Shown: positions 33,705-43,300 of the stretch, piece after piece
Layout: each line of letters starts with the position of its first letter
How positions within the stretch are numbered: the stretch's first letter is position 1
IMG/VR virus record: IMGVR_UViG_3300050498_000097
Coordinates: 2,700-66,699 of that record
Reading direction: 5' to 3' (one strand)
Source: a virus
Length of the DNA stretch: 64,000 nt
Notes under the pieces: model-generated
Database searches by the model: none
What the model was told of the DNA's origin: nothing
Seen by the model: the letters and a program-made list of their open reading frames with translations, nothing else
Translations under genes and position numbers: made by a program

Positions 33705-34352
33705 CTACATCCCAGTCAGGTCAAGAGTCACGTTACCGATCGCTAGGGAAATCTGGCCCTGTCCAGCGAAGACCTCAGGTACCACCTTCTGCTGGAACAG
33801 CTCGCCAACGGCAGTGATGTCCACAGCGACACCACCGGAGGTCAGGCTGACCTGGTATGTATCGGTGGTGGCGCCAACAACGAAGTAGATCGTGCCCTCA
33901 GTCAAGCCAGTGGGTAAGGATTCAGCCAGGACGTTGAACACCATCACCCGGTCGGTGTTGACAAGGCCGTGAGCTGCGCTCGTGATCGTGTTGCTGGTAA
34001 CTCCAGCCGCATCTACGCAGCCGAAGCCTTTGACTGAGCCACCGAATGGCGCATAGCCCCGGTAGTTGCCCGAGTTTCCAGATGAAGCATTGAAGAACCC
34101 GTAGTACCCATAAGTGCCAGCGGGAACGTCGAAGGTCATGGTATTGGTATTCGACTTGAGTGCTGAAGCTGCCGCGCCCCAGGTGACTGCTTGTCGGGCG
34201 TAGGCGGGTGACCCACCGGTTGCCTCAACCGCATTGGCGTTGGTGCCAGTGCCAGGATCAGACAAGCTGAAGATGGCGATGTGAGTGATCTGGGTGACGC
34301 TTTCGTCTAAGGAATCCAGCATCACATTTTTGCTAGCATCGTTAAAGGGCAT
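33705..34352 (-). CDS. Putative tail-fibre/collar-type virion protein
   Basis: KNVMLD, E.TGGSPAYARQAVTW..A......TFDVPAGT motif. Confidence 0.55.
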   Translation of the reverse strand: MPFNDASKNVMLDSLDESVTQITHIAIFSLSDPGTGTNANAVEATGGSPAYARQAVTWGAAASALKSNTNTMTFDVPAGTYGYYGFFNASSGNSGNYRGYAPFGGSVKGFGCVDAAGVTSNTITSAAHGLVNTDRVMVFNVLAESLPTGLTEGTIYFVVGATTDTYQVSLTSGGVAVDITAVGELFQQKVVPEVFAGQGQISLAIGNVTLDLTGM

Positions 34353-35040
34353 TTCCCCTCCCTAAGGCCAAGGTCGCTTCGTTCGTAGGCTTCACTCGCG
34401 GCCTACCGTCCCATGTCAGTCCTTGAGCCCTAAATCTGTAACGCCTCTCTCGTGCCTTTTCACGAGCACACGTTTTACATTCACGACTGCCATGATGTAT
34501 CCGAGTGTTTTCATCATCATACATGTGACCCCTGGGGCAATGCGTCTTGAGGGTGTGCACTGCTCCCATACCACGTGGGGGATGACCCTTGCCAGAGTGC
34601 GGTGACCGAGCGCCATTACTTTGAGCACTAACAGCCTCTAGGTGGGCTGGATTAATACATCTGCGATGGGAGCAGGTTGGGCCGCCATCACATAGTCCAG
34701 CATGTGCGTCATCATTGTGACAAATGTGGTCGATGTGAAAGTCCTCAGGTATGGGTCCGTGCCATGTCTCATAGGAAATCCGATGAGCGCCAACAGGTTT
34801 ACTATTAACCCCAACGTGGCCGTACCCTTGTCGATCCAGCTTTCCCTTATAAAGGAAGCATTCACCAACTCGTTCGTACCCATGGAATAGAAGAGCAGAG
34901 TAAGGACTACTGCCGTTTTCGCGACGCAAAGTTTTCAGGGGATCACCATGCTTCCTCCACCTAACATAGTGTTTTGGGCACCAGCCACGTTTAAGGTAGC
35001 GTCCCCTGTATTCACATGTTGCAACCGCACATGACTTCAT
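34342..35040 (-). CDS. HNH homing endonuclease with Zn-binding loops
   Basis: GYG..AHRISYE..HG.IP....IDH.C..RCINP.HL, KTHCPRGH..C.TC. Confidence 0.9.
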   Translation of the reverse strand: MKSCAVATCEYRGRYLKRGWCPKHYVRWRKHGDPLKTLRRENGSSPYSALLFHGYERVGECFLYKGKLDRQGYGHVGVNSKPVGAHRISYETWHGPIPEDFHIDHICHNDDAHAGLCDGGPTCSHRRCINPAHLEAVSAQSNGARSPHSGKGHPPRGMGAVHTLKTHCPRGHMYDDENTRIHHGSRECKTCAREKARERRYRFRAQGLTWDGRPRVKPTNEATLALGRGNAL

Positions 35041-35852
35041 GGCCAGGTAACCTGTCTTGGTTCTTGTAGATCTGGGCTATAAAATCTGGTACGTCCCTTT
35101 AATCCCTGTGGGTTATACAACATAATGAGCTGGTCTAGCTCCCAGAGGCCGGTTAACCCGTTCTTGAGAATGTCATTGATATCCACCATAGAGATGGTGA
35201 CACCCTGGCGGGATATGGACGTGACTCTTGAGGGCAGTCGGCAAGGTGCGCCCACACATGCCTTGGCGTATTCGCACGCCAGGGATGACGTGGCCTGGGC
35301 CAATGCGCCCGGTACCTCGCGTCCCCGGAGATAGGTAACCTCAAAAACATCCGGGTCACCGGGGCTCAGGTTCTGATCCGAGCACAGTGGCCAGCACGCA
35401 ACCGTATCGGTACGGACGAGCCACTGCTGATCGAGCACGAAGTAGTTGAAGCCACCAGCGCCAGAGACAGCTAATGTTGCTCCGTCAATTTGCACCGAGA
35501 CGATGGAGTGCACTGGTCCTGGCAGATATACCTGGCAAGCCGGATCACAGGTGCAACAACCGCCTGGACCACCGTTGCCACACCAGCAGTTACGCCATTC
35601 TCCCTGCCAGATATATGGCGTCCAGGTGCCCTCTCCGTCCCAGAACCAGCCACTTGGGCAGTTGGTGCACTGCCGGCCACAGGGCCGTACCGTTAAGGAA
35701 CATAGTCCAAACTGGCGACCGGTGGCGGCCCAAACAACCGTCTTTGCATAGTCAAGGGCCTGCAGCTGTAGCTCAGGAGAAACGTCATCCCAGTCTGGGC
35801 AGCACAGTTGCGTGAGGTCTGGCCAGGTGCAGGGCCCAGATTCAATTGCCAT
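35037..35852 (-). CDS. Head-to-tail adaptor
   Basis: C.WP, A...VWAATGRQFG.C..TVRPC, CRLP.RVTSISRQGVT. Confidence 0.7.
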   Translation of the reverse strand: MAIESGPCTWPDLTQLCCPDWDDVSPELQLQALDYAKTVVWAATGRQFGLCSLTVRPCGRQCTNCPSGWFWDGEGTWTPYIWQGEWRNCWCGNGGPGGCCTCDPACQVYLPGPVHSIVSVQIDGATLAVSGAGGFNYFVLDQQWLVRTDTVACWPLCSDQNLSPGDPDVFEVTYLRGREVPGALAQATSSLACEYAKACVGAPCRLPSRVTSISRQGVTISMVDINDILKNGLTGLWELDQLIMLYNPQGLKGRTRFYSPDLQEPRQVTWP

Positions 35853-35878
35853 TTAACCTGGGCCCCTTCCCAAAGTTG

Positions 35879-36901
35879 TTGCTATTGCAAATATCTCCTT
35901 GCTATAGCAACTAGTACTATACGGCCGCGCAACCACAGGATGCAGCTGGTGGCGCCAGCCTGGTGAGGAACATTCTGTGGTGCTGGGTGCTCGTGATCGG
36001 TGTCAGCATTGGGATCGGGTTGTTCAACGTACCGGCCGCATCGGATAGGTCGACGTTGTACGGGCCAACGCCCCAGAGTGAATTGCTACGGGTACGAGCG
36101 GTCACCGTAAAGTTCATGACACCGTTCTCGAAGGTCATGTCACCGATCGTGCCCTCAACGACCCAGGGGAAGAGTACGTAGCCGTACTCAACGCCTCCGG
36201 TGCAGGCAACACCAGCGCCACTGAGCCGGGTCCAGCCCTCAAAGGCAAAGTTGACGTTGACTACAGAGTTCTCGTCGGTGGACCAACCAATTTTCGTTGC
36301 TGCAGCATCATTGGACTGATATAGCGGCTCAGCCGCCATGATATTGACTATGTCCGGATCCACGTTGCAGAAGGTGAACGTCAGGTCCATCCACTTGAGA
36401 ATCGGGGGGTTGGTCTCTCTGACGCAGAAGAGGCCATCACCATTCTTGACGAAGAACTCTTCACGGTCCTCGTAGTTCTTGGTCATCTCAATGGAGATGA
36501 TTCCATCGCTAACGACCTGCGAGCAGCTACCGGTCACCACCTGTCCGCACGAGTTAAGCCGTGTTACCCGGACGCGAGGGACCTTAAAGGGGGTAAAGCA
36601 AACAGCGGTCATTTCGGCTCCTCGCCATTAGAAGCGGAGGTGGTTACTTCTTTTCTGGGGCGTCCAGGTCCCCTTTTAACTGGCTCTGCTTCCGTGGTAG
36701 TTGCTATAGCAACGACTTTTTCCTGCTCGGTTTCCTCGTTACTTGCTATAGCAACTACTTCCGGTTCCTCATCCGAATGAGCACTTCCATTAGCAACGGC
36801 TTGCTGATACCACGCCTCGGCCACCTCTGGATGAGCATGTATCACTCGTCCATAGTCAGACTCTTGTACATCCACGAGATCCGGGTTAGTTGCTATAGCA
36901 A
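35879..36901. repeat. TTGCTATAGCAA palindromes at 35899, 36701, 36743, 36890 plus a 1-mismatch copy at 35879
   Basis: Read directly; the copy at 36700-36713 extends to a 14-bp perfect palindrome. Confidence 0.9.
35917..36612 (-). CDS. Major tail protein
   Basis: RVRVTRLNSCG, EEF.VKN.DG..CV, L.F.FCNVDP, FAFEGW, YGY.LFPW; synteny. Confidence 0.78.
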   Translation of the reverse strand: MTAVCFTPFKVPRVRVTRLNSCGQVVTGSCSQVVSDGIISIEMTKNYEDREEFFVKNGDGLFCVRETNPPILKWMDLTFTFCNVDPDIVNIMAAEPLYQSNDAAATKIGWSTDENSVVNVNFAFEGWTRLSGAGVACTGGVEYGYVLFPWVVEGTIGDMTFENGVMNFTVTARTRSNSLWGVGPYNVDLSDAAGTLNNPIPMLTPITSTQHHRMFLTRLAPPAASCGCAAV

Positions 36902-36968
36902 ACAGTTCCCGAAGTACCTGTGGCAACAGGTCTGGTTCAACCGAGATGACGGTGTACTCCTTCATCAA
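36609..36968 (-). CDS. Small protein with a C-terminal AT-hook-like KRGPGRPRK motif
   Basis: ATGA coupling on both sides. Confidence 0.6.
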   Translation of the reverse strand: MMKEYTVISVEPDLLPQVLRELFAIATNPDLVDVQESDYGRVIHAHPEVAEAWYQQAVANGSAHSDEEPEVVAIASNEETEQEKVVAIATTTEAEPVKRGPGRPRKEVTTSASNGEEPK

Positions 36969-37807
36969 TGACTCGTATCTGTAAGCGTCACTTGTATGGC
37001 CGCTACATAACAGTCAAAGGTGAGGACGTACTCACGCTCCATAACCATCGTCAGGACGTTGGTAGACCGGTTGATAACTTCGCCCATTGTCGGCGTGAAC
37101 AGCTGCGAATCGGGGGTGCGCCAGATAGCCACTTGGCCAGTGATGTAGACCCAAGTAGTTCCTGTAGTAGGAACCTGACCAGTGGGCCCAGTGCCAGCGT
37201 AGTTACCAAAGGAGACAGCAGTACCGACGTCCGTGCGCCAGACTCCGCTTTCCTTCTCAATCAGGTGGGCACCCTTGTAGTAGGCAGCCGCTTCCATGGG
37301 GACATGGAGAACACCCGGTAGTCCGTACCGGGTGTAGAGCCAATCTTCCAATGCACCAGTGGCTGCAACTACGCCAGCGGCAGAGCCCAGATTGACGACG
37401 TTGGGATTACCCCCGAGTCCTGGTGATAAGCCGAAAGCGGAGGTGGAGAAGATGTTCTCGACTGCAGCCTGTTCGCCAGCGACCAGTTGGTCGTAGAGGA
37501 ACTTGTTGACCCGCTCGGTACCCCAATTGACCAGACCAACCGCACTGCAGCGAATGGCCGAATAGACAACGAATGGGCCACCGGAAACGATGGCTACTGA
37601 GGACTCAAGGGTCTTGGAGGCATGTGAATCTTGACAGTTGACCTGATAGCCAAGAGGCAGGCTACAGGTAGAAATCTCGTACTGTAGTCCACCGATACGA
37701 GCATGCTGAGGAAGGTCCAGGGGGCCAGTGGCCGCCTGGAACAAGCCGTACCTAGGTACAACCGGATTGGGTGCCGGTACATAAATTGGGCCGTTGAGTG
37801 CCGCCAT
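36965..37807 (-). CDS. Major capsid pentamer protein (cluster-B-like)
   Basis: P.P..PRYGLF.AA, GG..YE, PF.VY....C, G..H.P; follows the hexamer gene. Confidence 0.65.
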   Translation of the reverse strand: MAALNGPIYVPAPNPVVPRYGLFQAATGPLDLPQHARIGGLQYEISTCSLPLGYQVNCQDSHASKTLESSVAIVSGGPFVVYSAIRCSAVGLVNWGTERVNKFLYDQLVAGEQAAVENIFSTSAFGLSPGLGGNPNVVNLGSAAGVVAATGALEDWLYTRYGLPGVLHVPMEAAAYYKGAHLIEKESGVWRTDVGTAVSFGNYAGTGPTGQVPTTGTTWVYITGQVAIWRTPDSQLFTPTMGEVINRSTNVLTMVMEREYVLTFDCYVAAIQVTLTDTSH

Positions 37808-37832
37808 CGTCCCCTCCTCCCTGTTAGGTCAG

Positions 37833-37862
37833 TGGGGGTTGGGCCAGTTGACCCAACCCCCA
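37833..37862. terminator. 11-bp perfect stem-loop between the two capsid genes
   Basis: TGGGGGTTGGG-ccagttga-CCCAACCCCCA; no U-tract. Confidence 0.55.
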
Positions 37863-37871
37863 TAAGGCCTA

Positions 37872-39557
37872 TTAGCAGGTCACGTCTCGCTGGAGGCCGG
37901 TCTTACCGGATGGGCAAATGGCGACTGTGTAGACACGGCTAACTGGGCAGAAGCGCATGGCTCGGAAGCCGTCTTCCAAGAAGAGCTGTGTCACTTTGTT
38001 GGTGGCCAGGTTGGTGCTGTCGTAGATGGTGTCCAGACGGATAACATCCTGACGAGCAACCACCCAGGTTCCAGCCGGGTAGGCAAGGAAGCTGACGTTG
38101 ACCGGCAGTGCACAGATCGGAACGTCCGAACCTGGGAACGGGCCACCGGAAACACCAGTACCAGTGAAGGAGTCCTGCCAGTCGTAGACCCACTGGGCAC
38201 GAGCGTTGCGGGTACGGAGCATCTCCGTGATCATGTTGTCGGTCAGGTTGGCATCCATCGGGCCATTGCGCCGGATCCAGTCAGCCCGCATCTGAGCCTT
38301 GAGCCAGTACGGGAAGATGAACTCGATCGTCTGGGCCTGCTGCAGGCGCAGCCGGTACTGGATGTCAACGCTGGCGACCTCAACGGCCGACATGACCTGG
38401 GACACGACTGTAGCGTCAGTTGTGAATGGGGCACAGGCCATGGACACGGCGGTGGAGTCCGTAACCATGTCGGCAATGATCTGCCGGTTCACGTTGTGGG
38501 CCTGGGCGGCAATAGCGCCCTGGACGAACTCAGAGACGAACTCCGGGTAGCCACGGTTCTGGAGAATGTCGCCGGTCAAGCAGAGGGCGGCAACCTTCAG
38601 ACGGTCATCCACGAAGGAGGGGCAAGGAACCGCGACACAGGTCTTGGTTGTGTCGGAGATGACCTGAGCCTCAGTCAGGATGTTGAAGCCTGTACCGGAT
38701 CCGAAGATGGTGTCGAACTGGATGCCCTGGTTGTGCCGGATGCCGCCACGACGGGCGCCAATCTCAGGAACCGAGAGCAGACCATCGGTCGTGATCTGGT
38801 TACAGGTGGTGTAGATGGTCTCAGACGGAGCACACCAACCGGCACCAGCCAGAAGTGACCCACCAGGAAGACGGCTCTCGTCCCTGGCGAAGTCGATCTT
38901 CTTCATGATCGAGATGTCGTCGTCACCGTCACTGACGGACAGTTCGTTGGTGAACTCACGCTTGATCGTGGCCACAGTGGACTGCTGAGCAGTACCGCCG
39001 CTGTGGGTGTGGGACCGGGCTACGAAGGCCTTGGCCACGTCGAGCCAGCCATCTAGCTCAGCACCAGCGGAGAAGCCGGTGTCGGCTGCGGCCAGGATCT
39101 TGAACTGTGGCTTCTGCTCATCGCCGTATGTCACTGTGCCCTCCACGACCTGAGTTGTGGAGACAGCAATGTCAGATACAGAAGGAACCTTGTCAGCGGG
39201 AGGACTGGCCATTGCCATTTCAGCTGCCTTGGCTCGTGCCTTACGAGCTACAGGGGCAACCTCAACCTCGGCCTCTTCTTCAGCGTCTTCGTCGTCTTCG
39301 TCGGCTTCAACAGCGGTGACCTTAGTCAGAGTGTTGAAGCGCTGGTGACGGTCCTTGCGGCTTTCCAGCTCCTCGTCAACCATGACCATGAAGTTCTTCA
39401 GGTCTTCAAGGTTGTCAAGGTCCTCATCGTCGGCGGTCTCAGGGGTCAGTGCTTCACGGAGAGCATCAAACGCTGCAGCAGCCTCAAGGCCAAGGTCACG
39501 TAGGGCAGCGACCGTAAACCGGGGGAGGCTGTTGGCGTCCGGAATCTCGAATTCCAT
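37872..39557 (-). CDS. Major capsid (hexamer) protein with N-terminal scaffold-like region
   Basis: SLLAGAGWCAPSETIY, LSVPEI..RRGGIR, C..VPCPSF.D.RL, G.YPE, P.W....MRAD, DST.L.TN. Confidence 0.82.
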   Translation of the reverse strand: MEFEIPDANSLPRFTVAALRDLGLEAAAAFDALREALTPETADDEDLDNLEDLKNFMVMVDEELESRKDRHQRFNTLTKVTAVEADEDDEDAEEEAEVEVAPVARKARAKAAEMAMASPPADKVPSVSDIAVSTTQVVEGTVTYGDEQKPQFKILAAADTGFSAGAELDGWLDVAKAFVARSHTHSGGTAQQSTVATIKREFTNELSVSDGDDDISIMKKIDFARDESRLPGGSLLAGAGWCAPSETIYTTCNQITTDGLLSVPEIGARRGGIRHNQGIQFDTIFGSGTGFNILTEAQVISDTTKTCVAVPCPSFVDDRLKVAALCLTGDILQNRGYPEFVSEFVQGAIAAQAHNVNRQIIADMVTDSTAVSMACAPFTTDATVVSQVMSAVEVASVDIQYRLRLQQAQTIEFIFPYWLKAQMRADWIRRNGPMDANLTDNMITEMLRTRNARAQWVYDWQDSFTGTGVSGGPFPGSDVPICALPVNVSFLAYPAGTWVVARQDVIRLDTIYDSTNLATNKVTQLFLEDGFRAMRFCPVSRVYTVAICPSGKTGLQRDVTC

Positions 39558-39636
39558 CGCTTGGCCTTTCGGAAAGTTACGTAGTTAGCACGCAGCTATT
39601 CCGCCCGGCTCCCAGCTCAGCAGCGAATGTGATTGG

Positions 39637-39665
39637 ATTATGTATCTAATTCAAGTAATTGTCCA
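39637..39665 (-). promoter_or_regulatory. Sigma70/SigA-type promoter upstream of the capsid gene
   Basis: TGGACA-N17-CATAAT in an AT-rich intergenic gap. Confidence 0.6.
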
Positions 39666-39694
39666 GTCAAGTGAGGACAATTTCCCGGAAGATG

Positions 39695-39853
39695 TTACTT
39701 CTTCTTGACCTCGATACGGCCGCCGTACTTGGTAACAGCAATGTCGGCCGCGACCTTGGAGGCAAACTCCTCTGTCTGTCCGTTCGCCTTGCGCACAACG
39801 TAGCTCTCAGCGGCATTGCCTCCGCTCTTGCCACAGTTACAGGGCATTCTCAT
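39695..39853 (-). CDS. Small Cys-motif protein (MPCNCGK...), absent from ORF track
   Basis: 50-52 aa, GC3-rich, ATGA overlap with the upstream gene. Confidence 0.65.
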   Translation of the reverse strand: MRMPCNCGKSGGNAAESYVVRKANGQTEEFASKVAADIAVTKYGGRIEVKKK

Positions 39854-40062
39854 TCCCTCTCTCGCAGTGAGGCGTAGCCATTAGACCAGCCGCTGTAATC
39901 ATTGAACACTTCTTCAGCGGGAAGGTCCACTAGGCGTTTAGAGATGATTGTCTTAACCCCCTTGCCTTGGTACGTGATCTTGCCGTCCTCCAGGGTGGCG
40001 GTATCCCCGGTAGGAACCGACTCGTCCCCAGTGTCATCGATGAGTTCCAGGACACGGGCCAC
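39850..40062 (-). CDS. Small hypothetical protein (candidate immunity factor)
   Basis: AGGAGG RBS then GTG 40062; ends GWSNGY..LRERE. Confidence 0.65.
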   Translation of the reverse strand: MARVLELIDDTGDESVPTGDTATLEDGKITYQGKGVKTIISKRLVDLPAEEVFNDYSGWSNGYASLRERE

Positions 40063-40073
40063 AACGCACCTCC

Positions 40074-40082
40074 TGCTATACT
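40074..40082 (+). promoter_or_regulatory. Extended -10 promoter TGCTATACT for a leaderless transcript
   Basis: TGn-TATACT-N6-ATG(40089). Confidence 0.65.
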
Positions 40083-40088
40083 GGCTCC

Positions 40089-40310
40089 ATGGCAAAGCGA
40101 GTGGATGATGAGACCGAGTTCATTATGGCCGATGAGGACGGGAATCCGACCAGAGATCGGTCCAAGGCCGTGATGGCTGAGCGGACCAAGACCCTTCCGG
40201 GCGGAATCGAAGAGCACACCATCATGCGCAAGAAGGGCCGTGGTGGTGGACGTTCGCCAGTCGATCCGGTCACGGGAAAGATCCGGCCGGAAGCTCTCAG
40301 AGAGAACTAG
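40089..40310 (+). CDS. Small antisense-oriented protein (candidate antitoxin/regulator)
   Basis: Own extended -10; GC3-rich codons; converges on the giant gene stop. Confidence 0.6.
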   Translation: MAKRVDDETEFIMADEDGNPTRDRSKAVMAERTKTLPGGIEEHTIMRKKGRGGGRSPVDPVTGKIRPEALREN

Positions 40311-43300
40311 ACGCTAGCGGTAATTCGTTCTGCTGCCTGCGCTGCTTCCCGGAAGATATCCGCCAGCCTCCGGTCAGGATCGATTTGCCCACGGAACGGC
40401 TCACGTTCTTCAGCTGTCTGGCCCCGACGAGCCCATTCTGCCAATTGTCCACGCATCTCTGGCGCACGTAGGCGTGTCTCCAGATTCCACATGGGATAGG
40501 CGCCATCGCGACTTTCGTGGTACCGCCGCAGTACGCCCTCGATCCTGCTATCAAGCTCGCGCCGTGAACCTGTTAATTCGCCCCTGCCTGCCTCTCGGAA
40601 GATTTCCGCCAGCTGCTCCACAGCGGAAACCCGGTCCTTGCGGTCAGGAAGATTTCCATTTTCCACTCGACGGGCCAGTGGGATCCGGTTCAGATCTTCT
40701 AGAAGCTGACGTAGTGCTGGTGGTGTGTTCACTGGAATGTCAGGGATTTCAGCCACGGGTGCGTCCATCTGAGCTAATGCCTTGTCGTACAGCGCCCGGA
40801 CGTTGGGGTCCGTTTCCGCTGCTCGCATCATTCTAAGCTCGTCAATTGCCCGTTGAGTGGCATCAAGATCAGTGACATTGCGGCTGTAGTCACGCCGCAG
40901 CTCCATCACTCTGTTCGCTGAGCCATTCCGATTACGCTTGGCAAGCGCCTGCGCCAGGTTCATTGCTGGTGAGTCCCCGTGCATGATGCTGTTGTCACCC
41001 TCTGGGTCACCCCGAAGTGGAACACTTTCATCTACCGGGGGACGTGGACCAGCTGCACGTAGCCGTTCTTCATCGACGCGATCCTGCTCCTGTAGCCGGC
41101 GCATTTCGGCGTCTACCAGCTCAGGTCGGAGATCCCGGATATCCCGATCAAGCAAACTGCCACGTGCTCGCATACGCAGTGGTTCTTCATTCTCTATCTC
41201 AGTGGCAACGCGCTCAATCCCAGCTTCCTCTGTCGCCCTTCTCCTTCTATCTTCTGCAATGAAGTTGTCAACGTCCTCCGGAGTAAGTAGTCCACGCCGG
41301 TTGTTGTCAGCCATCTTGCGGGCTGCAGGAGTATCAGCTTCTTCGGCGTACCGGTCGATACGGTCCTGAACCAGATCAGTTAGGACTCGCTGGAGAAGAC
41401 CACCTGGACCCTGCAGCTCGTTAGCGACCTCGTTAGCCGTTATGGGCGCTGGGGCTGCCTTCTTGGCAGGGCTCTCGGCAGGCGCAGTCTTCTTGGCAGC
41501 CGGTACGGTCTTCTTCTCCCGAGTGATAGTTGGCTTGGCGGGTGTCTCAGGTGCCTCAGGTGCAGCCTTCTTGGCTGCCGGTGCCTTGCGAGGACGCACC
41601 GGACCCTCAGTGCCTGGAGCTTCGGCAATGACCTTGCCACGGTTCAGGATGACGTACTGGTCTTTGGCGCCGGTCTCTGGGTCAACACCAAATGCCATAG
41701 ACCCACGAGGGGCATGGATAGCGTCGTATCCGCGTGAGATTGCGTAGTGGCCCATGCCATCGGATGAGCCATGAACCTCGTTGTCAAGGACGCTGACATA
41801 TCCGTAGAGCTTTGCTTCTGGACTATTGGGGTCTAGACCCTTGATGAAGTCGTCATACTCCTGACGCAAGTCTTCTAGCTCAACGATTTTTGCATCTTTG
41901 GCAAGACCGTATCGAGCAACAGAGCCATCAGTCAGATCACTGTAACCCTTAGCATGCTGACTGTTCCGGGTCATGTATGTGCCGTTACCGAAGACTCCCT
42001 GTCCTGCGTGGTAGCGACCTTCCCGGAATTCGGCATGGACCTCGGATGCGGGCTTGGTTCTGTAGTAGCTGCTGACGTTGGCATCGCGACCTGATGTATT
42101 GATTCCACGGTACAGAACCAGACCAATGTCCTTCTTCCGCCGCTGCTCGAACTCTTCCCGAGAGACAACCTCAGGAAGCGCGTCAAATCCCTGACGCTCG
42201 GCTAGCTTTTCTGCAGTCAGGTCGCCGCCACGACGACTCTGCCGCTCCCCGTACCGGTTGTCACTACGTTGTTTGCTGTAGTCAGGATCTGTTTCAATCT
42301 GCTCGTAGAGTCGAGCAGCCAGGCCTGACTCTCGGGTGCGGTCCTTGGTATCTACCTTCTTGGCCCGCAGATCTGCCTTACGAACCTCGTCGGCATCTGC
42401 AAAGTGCTCCAGGATGTCAGCCTTCAGCTCCTTGGTGCTCTTGGTCCCAGGCTTTAGCCCTAGGTCCTTGGCAATACCTCTCCAGATAACTGGGGAAGTG
42501 CCGAGATGCGACTTGTACTTAGGCTTCGGCAGCGCCGCATCAAGACGTTCAATCACACGTTCACGAGCGCCCGAACCTTGGGCGTCTAATAGCGCTCGCC
42601 GCAGGTTTTCAGTGTTGACCGTCTTGTCAGGCCTCAGAACAGCCCTAGCCTCATGGGCTGCTCGCACCTCCTCGCGCTCCTTCTTGGCCTTTTCGTCCTG
42701 CTCAGCATGCCGCTTGTCTTCTGCGTCCCGCTCCCTCTGCGTCATCGCCTTGCGACGATCCCGTTCGCGCTGCTCGCTTTCACGACGGTCCTGATCCATA
42801 CGCTGTATCACGTCACGGGTGTACTTGGCTTGACGCCAGTCAGGAATCGACCGTTCCCTGGCCTTCAGGTAATCCGCCGTCTCCTCCTCAGTAAGCTTCG
42901 CCCTCTTAGCGGCAGCTGTCTTCCGCTTCAGCTCCTGGCTCTTCTCCAGCTCCTTACCTCTGGCTGTACGCCAGACACCAAGTGACTGGTGATTGGAGCT
43001 GGCGTAGCTCTGGGCATCTGCTTCACTGAGTCCGGCCCTGCGAGCAACGGCTAGCTTTCGACGCTCTTCTTTGGACTGTGGTGTCTCGGGAGCAGCCTTC
43101 GCCGCTGGAGCAGCCTTGGGTGCTCGCTTGATGACTGGCTTAGGGCCTGCAGCTAGGGACCGGAGTTTACGTCGGGCATCGTCGTCTAGTCCTGACTCCT
43201 TGTCACTGGCCATATCCCTGATAGCACGCCGGACGAAGTCACCATGATCTGCATATAGGTCATCTAGCAGTTCACGTGTAACCGGGACCCAGCCATACTC

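Follow-up and report, generated by a model that had tools for sequence, protein, structure and literature searches.

The window analysed here, 64,000 nucleotides in length, comprises bases 2700-66699 of an 87,125-bp IMG/VR virus record that is rated 100% complete and belongs to an uncultured phage. Every gene at the locus is encoded by the minus strand, and the order is capsid, phrog_779, small AT-hook gene, major tail, gap and adaptor (Table 1). ATGA overlaps of start and stop codons join the small gene to both of its neighbours. The gene module belongs to the Rosebush/phiAsp2 type known from actinobacterial siphoviruses; the major tail protein has annotated relatives in Rosebush- and phiAsp2-type actinophages, and in the cultured relatives the slot before the tail gene is occupied by other genes. 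The hosts of this clade of uncultured phages are apparently actinobacteria, and no prophage relative was found in GTDB genomes. The sole match to a sigma-70-like promoter in 35000-40400 (TGGACA-17-CATAAT, 39637-39665, minus strand) lies upstream of the capsid gene. Past the adaptor, an HNH endonuclease gene separates the adaptor from the next head-tail gene. It is probably a mobile insertion, because the ORF that follows the adaptor differs in length in all related loci mapped (142-457 aa), with L007 as a possible exception (234 aa). In one relative (L023:4001-4777, IMGVR_UViG_3300044699_000054), the tail frame continues without a gap into the adaptor N-terminal coding sequence, reflecting either a deletion or fusion or else an assembly error.

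Table 1. Features of the tail-gene locus (window coordinates) and gap dyads of related phages.
Feature	Position	Strand	Description
Major head protein (capsid) gene	37872-39557	-	phrog_777
Capsid hairpin, GC-rich, 13 bp	37834-37861	-	Directly past capsid gene; comparison element; no U-tract
phrog_779 gene	36965-37807	-	Function unknown
Small gene	36609-36965	-	118 aa; AT-hook; at least 31 homologues
Site A, exact	36890-36901		Folded N-terminal domain; codes FAIATN; 15 nt complementary to D
Site B', degenerate	36785-36796		42 nt from B; GTTGCTAATGGAA on coding strand; codes VANG
Site B, exact	36743-36754		Linker; codes VAIAS
Site C, exact	36701-36712		Small-gene linker; codes VAIAT
AT-hook PVKRGPGRPRK codons	36651-36683	-	Invariant or nearly so in 22 aligned homologues
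Major tail protein gene	35917-36612	-	phrog_792, E 1.6e-70; cistron bracketed by copies
Gap, 64 nt	35853-35916		Between tail and adaptor genes
Site D, exact palindrome	35899-35910		Starts 7 nt past tail stop codon; coding strand TAGTTGCTATAGCAAGG
Site E, one-mismatch copy	35879-35890		20 bp from D; coding strand TTGCAATAGCAA
D+E stem	35877-35912	-	Predicted in late mRNA: 8 + 5 bp, one A-A mismatch, 6-nt loop
Second gap hairpin	35832-35866	-	12-bp stem enclosing adaptor start codon; -26.5 kcal/mol
Head-tail adaptor gene	35037-35852	-	phrog_783, E 2.6e-72; downstream of gap
HNH endonuclease gene	34342-35040	-	PF13392
L007 gap dyad			GTTGCTATAGCAAC
L006 gap dyad			GTTGCTGAAGCAAC
L008, L013 gap dyad			GTTGCTTGCGCAAGCAAC
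L010 gap dyad			TTGCTTGTACAAGCAA
L083/L084 gap dyads			GTTGTTTGCGCAAGCA / TGCTTGCGCAAACAAC; tail protein 49% identical

A 12-base palindrome, TTGCTATAGCAA, recurs around the major tail gene. A motif search located exact copies at 35899, 36701, 36743 and 36890 and a one-mismatch copy, TTGCTATTGCAA, at 35879, all within 35879-36901. The initial annotation, made from the sequence alone, had listed these same five copies, two in the 64-nt gap past the major tail gene and three in the small gene, and each was found again in its place. A sixth, degenerate copy at 36785-36796 continues a 42-nt spacing. We labelled the sites in the order of transcription: A (36890), B' (36785, degenerate), B (36743), C (36701), D (35899) and E (35879). 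Site A falls in the folded domain encoded by the small gene, B', B and C fall in its linker, and D and E in the gap.

The shuffled-background count proposed in the annotation gave a mean of 0.04 matches to TTGCTATAGCAA and a maximum of 1 in 100 dinucleotide shuffles of the window, against four exact copies in the real sequence. Consistent with the earlier statement that no full copies were seen elsewhere, the whole 87,125-bp record holds those four exact matches and no others. Shuffles and whole-record count together rule out a chance origin of the copies. The genome had also been described as GC-rich, which is correct only in a moderate sense (57.5% GC). Three more sites appear in the whole record when up to two mismatches are allowed. 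The 3' end of the terminase gene contains two of them, spaced by 20 bp and reading TCGCTATGGCAA and GAGCTATAGCAA on its coding strand. That large-subunit gene (G000 genome 84305-86296, L101:806-2797, minus strand) lies outside the window and has a weak Hint (intein-type) match near its N-terminus, below the Pfam cut-off. Elsewhere in the genome the palindrome half-site occurs at chance level, ruling out a genome-wide regulatory motif, and Rfam gave no match at E <= 1 in 35000-40000.

Three unrelated virus contigs also contain arrays of the 12-mer. In one of them, a low-G+C contig, nine 12-mer or one-mismatch copies occupy 350 bp of non-coding DNA adjoining an integrase-like gene (L099:2560-2915, IMGVR_UViG_3300043822_000014). 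Homology with these arrays is not indicated, since any repeated 12-bp palindrome would surface in this way.

For the small gene, the ATG at 36965 is the most likely start codon and gives a product of 118 aa. The annotation had placed the start at 36968 and read the protein as ending in KRGPGRPRK; the AT-hook is indeed present, with its G-R-P core and basic flanks, but 13 residues follow it. Conserved homologues confirmed that the AT-hook protein is a real protein. The family comprises at least 31 metagenomic proteins, 22 of which were aligned, and in its members an N-terminal domain (about 60 residues) is followed by a variable, acidic linker, then by the invariant PVKRGPGRPRK and last by an SASNGEE tail. 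The closest relative with available DNA is L090 (small protein 64%, tail protein 94% identical), and the AT-hook codons differ silently between it and the window genome. The SASNGEE codons (36618-36638, minus strand, TCCGCTTCTAATGGCGAGGAG) are near-identical in all relatives, most silent positions included, a constancy likely imposed by the ribosome-binding region of the overlapping tail gene. An AlphaFold model displayed a confident beta-alpha-beta-beta-alpha N-terminal domain, with the remainder disordered (linker pLDDT 41-44). Searching with this domain returned weak fold matches of at most Z 6, to TFIIH p8 and RNA polymerase dimerisation modules, and no known DNA-binding fold. The small protein has no Pfam match above cut-off, no PHROG match, no cultured-phage match and no Atlas lead.

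In the gap, sites D and E are predicted to fold together in the late mRNA, and the same stretch is a 34-bp dyad in DNA. RNA folding predicted -22.9 kcal/mol for the gap, with D+E at z -2.6 to -4.1 relative to shuffles. The stem is AU-rich and is followed in the window genome by AACUUUGGG, with no U run; a terminator consensus scan made no call on the minus strand in the gap. Neither a sigma-70-like promoter site nor a TANNNT hexamer was detected in the gap on either strand. Between the window genome and L090, all 24 positions of D and E agree, E's deviant base included, whereas 39-48% (about 44%) of the codons for identical residues differ across all four flanking genes. This identity places the gap copies under constraint at the nucleotide level. 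Further along the gap, a second hairpin (arms GGGGCCCAGGUU...AAUCUGGGCCC) encloses the adaptor start codon. Several relatives have pairing around or just past this codon, in some cases as a perfect anti-Shine-Dalgarno match, and the hairpin looks like a conserved translational throttle.

Scans of IMG/VR, metagenomes and GTDB genomes for further close relatives yielded L090 only. At greater distance, six further lineages have paired dyads in the same place with the same arms and another centre; in all seven lineages the arms TAGTTGC/GCAACTA are kept, and the centre changes symmetrically. In L006, L007, L008 and L013, the pattern GTTGCT-N2-6-AGCAAC is confined to the gap in searches of the whole records (28-148 kb). 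Each copy in L083/L084 is an imperfect palindrome, yet one copy is fully complementary to the other over 16 nt. In the L013 gap, the predicted stem reaches 18 bp (z -6.0) and precedes a run of five U, and L081 has two direct repeats of CCCGCAACTA without hairpin potential. Among more distant relatives, many have an ordinary hairpin of unrelated sequence in the gap (7-13 bp; for example L014, L016, L020, L021, L050 and L074), and others have a short gap and no hairpin. Centre-to-centre spacings of adjacent gap dyads are 20, 22, 32, 43, 32, 22, 15 and 20 bp. In an exploratory, post hoc test, all but one of these eight values came within 1 bp of a multiple of 10.5. Because the copies are confined to the surroundings of the major tail gene and their layout is kept in relatives, we conclude that the palindrome set is a real, selected, local cis element.

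Inside the small gene, B and C are inverted repeats of each other, perfect over 16 nt (GTAGTTGCTATAGCAA / TTGCTATAGCAACTAC) as against 13 nt in direct orientation, with a predicted 15-bp stem (z -3.5 relative to shuffles). A and D, and likewise C and D, match over 15 nt in the inverted sense. Comparable partners occur in relatives. The L007 linker contains a 14-nt segment complementary to the second L007 gap copy, perfect only when inverted, and 48 nt of the L009 linker are 73% complementary to the L009 gap. In L008 and L010 the adaptor gene contains 18 nt that copy the L008-type gap dyad; the gap dyad of L010 itself departs from that type at two central bases. This adaptor copy arises wholly by codon choice for the conserved peptide LAQATS, for which relatives use other codons, and in L008 it matches the gap copy over 18 nt inverted versus 14-15 nt direct. 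In every partner pair compared, the flanks past the core match in the inverted sense.

These in-gene copies might nevertheless be by-products of a gap hairpin that alone is functional. The codons of a repeat E-V-V-A-x-A-S/T share GTAGTTGCT with the hairpin arm, and gene conversion between nearby similar stretches could keep the copies alike without benefit. The repeat V-V-A-x-[AS]-[ST], which corresponds to GTT GCT nnA GCA ACn in frame, is indeed present in the linker of most of the 22 homologues, and a disordered linker should tolerate change. Site B shares 19 nt with the L007 gap copy, showing that sequence has moved between positions, and in-gene copy number and form differ even between the window genome and L090. 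The L090 linker copies keep the arms TTGCT/AGCAA with different centres, and its site A has ATT as the Ile codon. Codon choice makes this explanation improbable in our judgement. The predicted proteome contains 16 AIA tripeptides; the three in the small gene are all coded GCT-ATA-GCA (probability about 0.0067 each from genome codon usage), compared with 0 of the 13 others, and site A is coded so although it lies in the folded domain, outside the peptide repeat. The cores of B and C are identical at 12 of 12 positions but the rest of their 42-nt units at only 17 of 30, which also rules out a recent tandem duplication of the unit. Further against a by-product, the 18-nt copy in L008/L010 lies in a conserved adaptor gene and is made by silent choices alone, and repeats around an essential gene invite deletion, so that neutral persistence in four lineages is unlikely. 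The in-gene copies are therefore not accounted for by the peptide repeat alone.

Alternatively, the copies could be landmarks for DNA transactions, namely origin iterons, a packaging signal or recombination handles for exchange of the tail gene. Dyad repeats in the linker codons of a gene for a small putative DNA-binding protein are formally lambda O-like, and the conserved arms flank a gene that may be exchangeable between phages. Phage SPP1 provides a precedent, with one origin inside gene 38 and a second within the late region (PMC6316719). The surroundings make such a function highly improbable. Local GC near the copies is 0.47-0.63 in 120-nt windows, without an AT-rich unwinding stretch, and none of the 15 most AT-rich 120-nt windows of the genome falls among the copies, the nearest (window ~35012) being about 870 nt away. 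Structural genes surround the cluster, the terminase gene lies at a distance of 45 kb, relatives without in-gene copies retain the gap pair, and spacers of 8-25 bp are unfit for a recombinase core site. The origin or packaging landmark offered by the annotation thus finds neither an unwinding stretch nor replication or packaging genes adjoining the cluster. An origin assignment by GC skew was rejected separately, as the skew merely tracks the composition of a giant gene.

Judged from the sequences compared, the element most likely consists of RNA stem-loops and less likely of protein-bound DNA sites, and its most likely role is to set tail-protein output relative to the next genes. Tuning of tail versus neck expression, as first proposed in the annotation, fits the position of the sites. 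Our leading account, which we hold tentatively, is that the late mRNA carries stem-loops on either side of the tail cistron, with a function in 3'-end formation, in stabilisation or in processing; we infer both the action as RNA and the effect on mRNA ends and amounts. The palindromes would act in cis on the late mRNA. D and E would fold into a 13-bp stem right past the tail stop codon (up to 18 bp in relatives), which, together with the adaptor-start hairpin, would mark the point where output steps down between the tail tube protein and the neck genes. In phage virions the tail tube protein is generally needed in far greater amount than the neck proteins. The D+E stem could be a barrier to 3' exonucleases, a leaky terminator or an RNase III-type site. 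The in-gene copies would serve as pairing partners: B and C could pair in a stem of 15-16 bp, some 90-150 nt before the tail start codon, and the 15-nt matches of A and C to D would place like stems on both sides of the tail cistron, which could therefore be released as a stable unit or maintained as one. The small protein's disordered linker would tolerate the copies.

Several observations argue for stem-loops. The gap site lies directly past the stop codon of a gene whose product is needed in high copy number, at a position where distant relatives have plain hairpins, and further hairpins of the operon occur after the capsid gene, at the adaptor start and, as a degenerate pair, at the end of the terminase gene. 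D+E, B+C and the L013 gap fold better than shuffles, the imperfect palindromes of L083/L084 pair perfectly with each other, and the flanks beyond the core match in inverted sense. The complete identity of D and E amid extensive silent codon change supports the same reading. Other features count against it. The D+E stem is AU-rich, has an A-A mismatch, lacks a U-tract in the window genome and was not called as a terminator. Clear fold excess over shuffles is limited to 2-3 of 8 linkers, and on the sense strand the long complementary match of L009 has C-A mismatches but lacks G-U pairs. The GC-rich hairpin after the capsid gene, present in 16 of 16 loci checked, differs between the window genome and L090 by compensatory changes, while the D/E sequence was kept, which points to sequence-specific recognition. 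The near-whole-turn gap spacings (7 of 8, exploratory) likewise favour recognition as DNA.

Such recognition is the core of the main competing explanation, in which the palindromes are DNA operators and a dimeric or oligomeric phage protein binds the gap dyads cooperatively together with auxiliary copies in coding DNA. The obvious candidate for the binder is the AT-hook protein, whose own gene holds three copies; once bound, it might curb transcription beyond the tail gene, either as a roadblock or by forming a loop, and it might also be autoregulatory. The dyads show perfect symmetry, with an exact sequence that is conserved in L090 and arms that stay constant in seven lineages while the centre varies symmetrically, and in the gap they are spaced close to multiples of 10.5. 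At 0.6-1 kb on both sides there are extra copies, made by silent codon choice in L008/L010 and by rare codons in the window genome, which resemble the auxiliary operators of lac and gal. The direct repeats of L081, devoid of hairpin potential, also suit DNA sites better. In addition, the AT-hook is invariant in its family, the gene adjoins the sites, and gap dyads mostly co-occur with it.

Weighing on the other side, the gap has no sigma-70-like promoter on either strand, and the half-site is not above chance elsewhere in the genome. The separation of half-sites varies from 2 to 6 bp among lineages, which is hard to reconcile with a rigid dimer, and dyad spacing shifts from 20 to 22 bp between close relatives; the helical spacing test itself was post hoc. 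The candidate protein has an N-terminal domain without a known DNA-binding fold (best Z 6). AT-hook and dyads are also uncoupled in some lineages: L006, L008 and L013 keep the dyads and have lost the AT-hook, and L015 has the AT-hook protein and no dyad. A link between the AT-hook and an AT-rich dyad centre (window genome, L090, L007 and L009) was considered as well; it is contradicted by L083 and L005, and few lineages are involved. We therefore rate operators as possible, if on balance rather unlikely, and place them behind stem-loops because intercistronic stem-loops are common in phage late operons, where operator sets are rare. Phage SPP1 exemplifies such stem-loops (PMC6316719). A bolder proposal, which we think unlikely, is that the AT-hook protein is a local architectural regulator with sites in its own linker codons and in the gap, bridging the tail gene and throttling the late operon. 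By analogy, this arrangement of self-sites would be like lambda O/ori, for late-gene dosage and not replication, with lineage-specific dyad centres.

To our knowledge, how very unequal protein amounts are set from one long late operon is understood in few model phages only. The clade described here marks the boundary past its major tail gene with a sequence-conserved double dyad, and coding DNA has repeatedly been recruited, via silent codon choice, to bear further copies. These patterns provide clear evidence that selection acts on signals at the nucleic-acid level within structural and accessory genes. A compact module emerges, made up of the gap pair, the start-codon hairpin and the in-gene partners. 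If a protein binds the sites, they would represent a rare operator set inside a late operon, and the small, widespread family of AT-hook proteins would gain its first assigned function.

Among known systems, the lambda ori repeats are internally symmetric and occupy the codons of the inter-domain linker in gene O. As in lambda ori/gene O and in SPP1 oriL/gene 38 (PMC6316719), the palindromes are repeats inside the gene for a small putative DNA-binding protein. Unlike these origins, they have no AT-rich unwinding element and lie in a late structural operon with no replication genes nearby. Short sites are also familiar from actinobacterial phages: the Cluster A stoperators are asymmetric and number 30 or more across the genome. 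Cluster O actinophages have a 17-bp dyad repeat, TGTTCGGNNNCCGAACA, in 30 or more copies genome-wide, some of them inside genes (PMC4351075). The palindromes resemble both in being short conserved sites at or near gene boundaries, and they share with the Cluster O repeats the presence of some copies within genes. They do not reach 30 copies across the genome and, unlike either, are confined to the flanks of a single gene.

Primary and auxiliary operators joined by DNA looping are found in lac (O1/O2/O3) and gal (OE/OI). The phage locus is similar in its intergenic dyad, the extra copies a few hundred bp away in coding sequence and the near-whole-turn spacing, and its dyad-symmetric sites are repeated as in an operator set. 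It differs in that no sigma-70-like promoter was detected at the primary site, half-site spacing varies by lineage and the binder is only a candidate.

RNase III processing stems, such as the R sites of phage T7 and the stems flanking rRNA genes, are classically of ~20 bp. The phage locus shares with them predicted stems of 13-18 bp between cistrons with a conserved internal mismatch, and long-range complementary segments of 14-18 nt that bracket or abut one cistron. All exceed one helical turn in prediction (13 bp for D+E, 15 bp for B+C and 16-18 bp in L008/L013), but they are shorter than the classic stems, and their partners lie upstream or downstream depending on the lineage. In E. coli, as Newbury and colleagues reportedly described in 1987, the intercistronic REP palindromes of malE-malF stabilise the upstream mRNA. 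Like REP, the phage element has paired palindromic units in the gap past the more highly expressed cistron and a predicted 3'-end stem. REP units are dispersed genome-wide in many intergenic copies, whereas the phage copies all lie within 1 kb, some of them in coding DNA, and are conserved in exact sequence. Collectively, these comparisons place the palindrome set with the known intercistronic control elements, as a variant of them.
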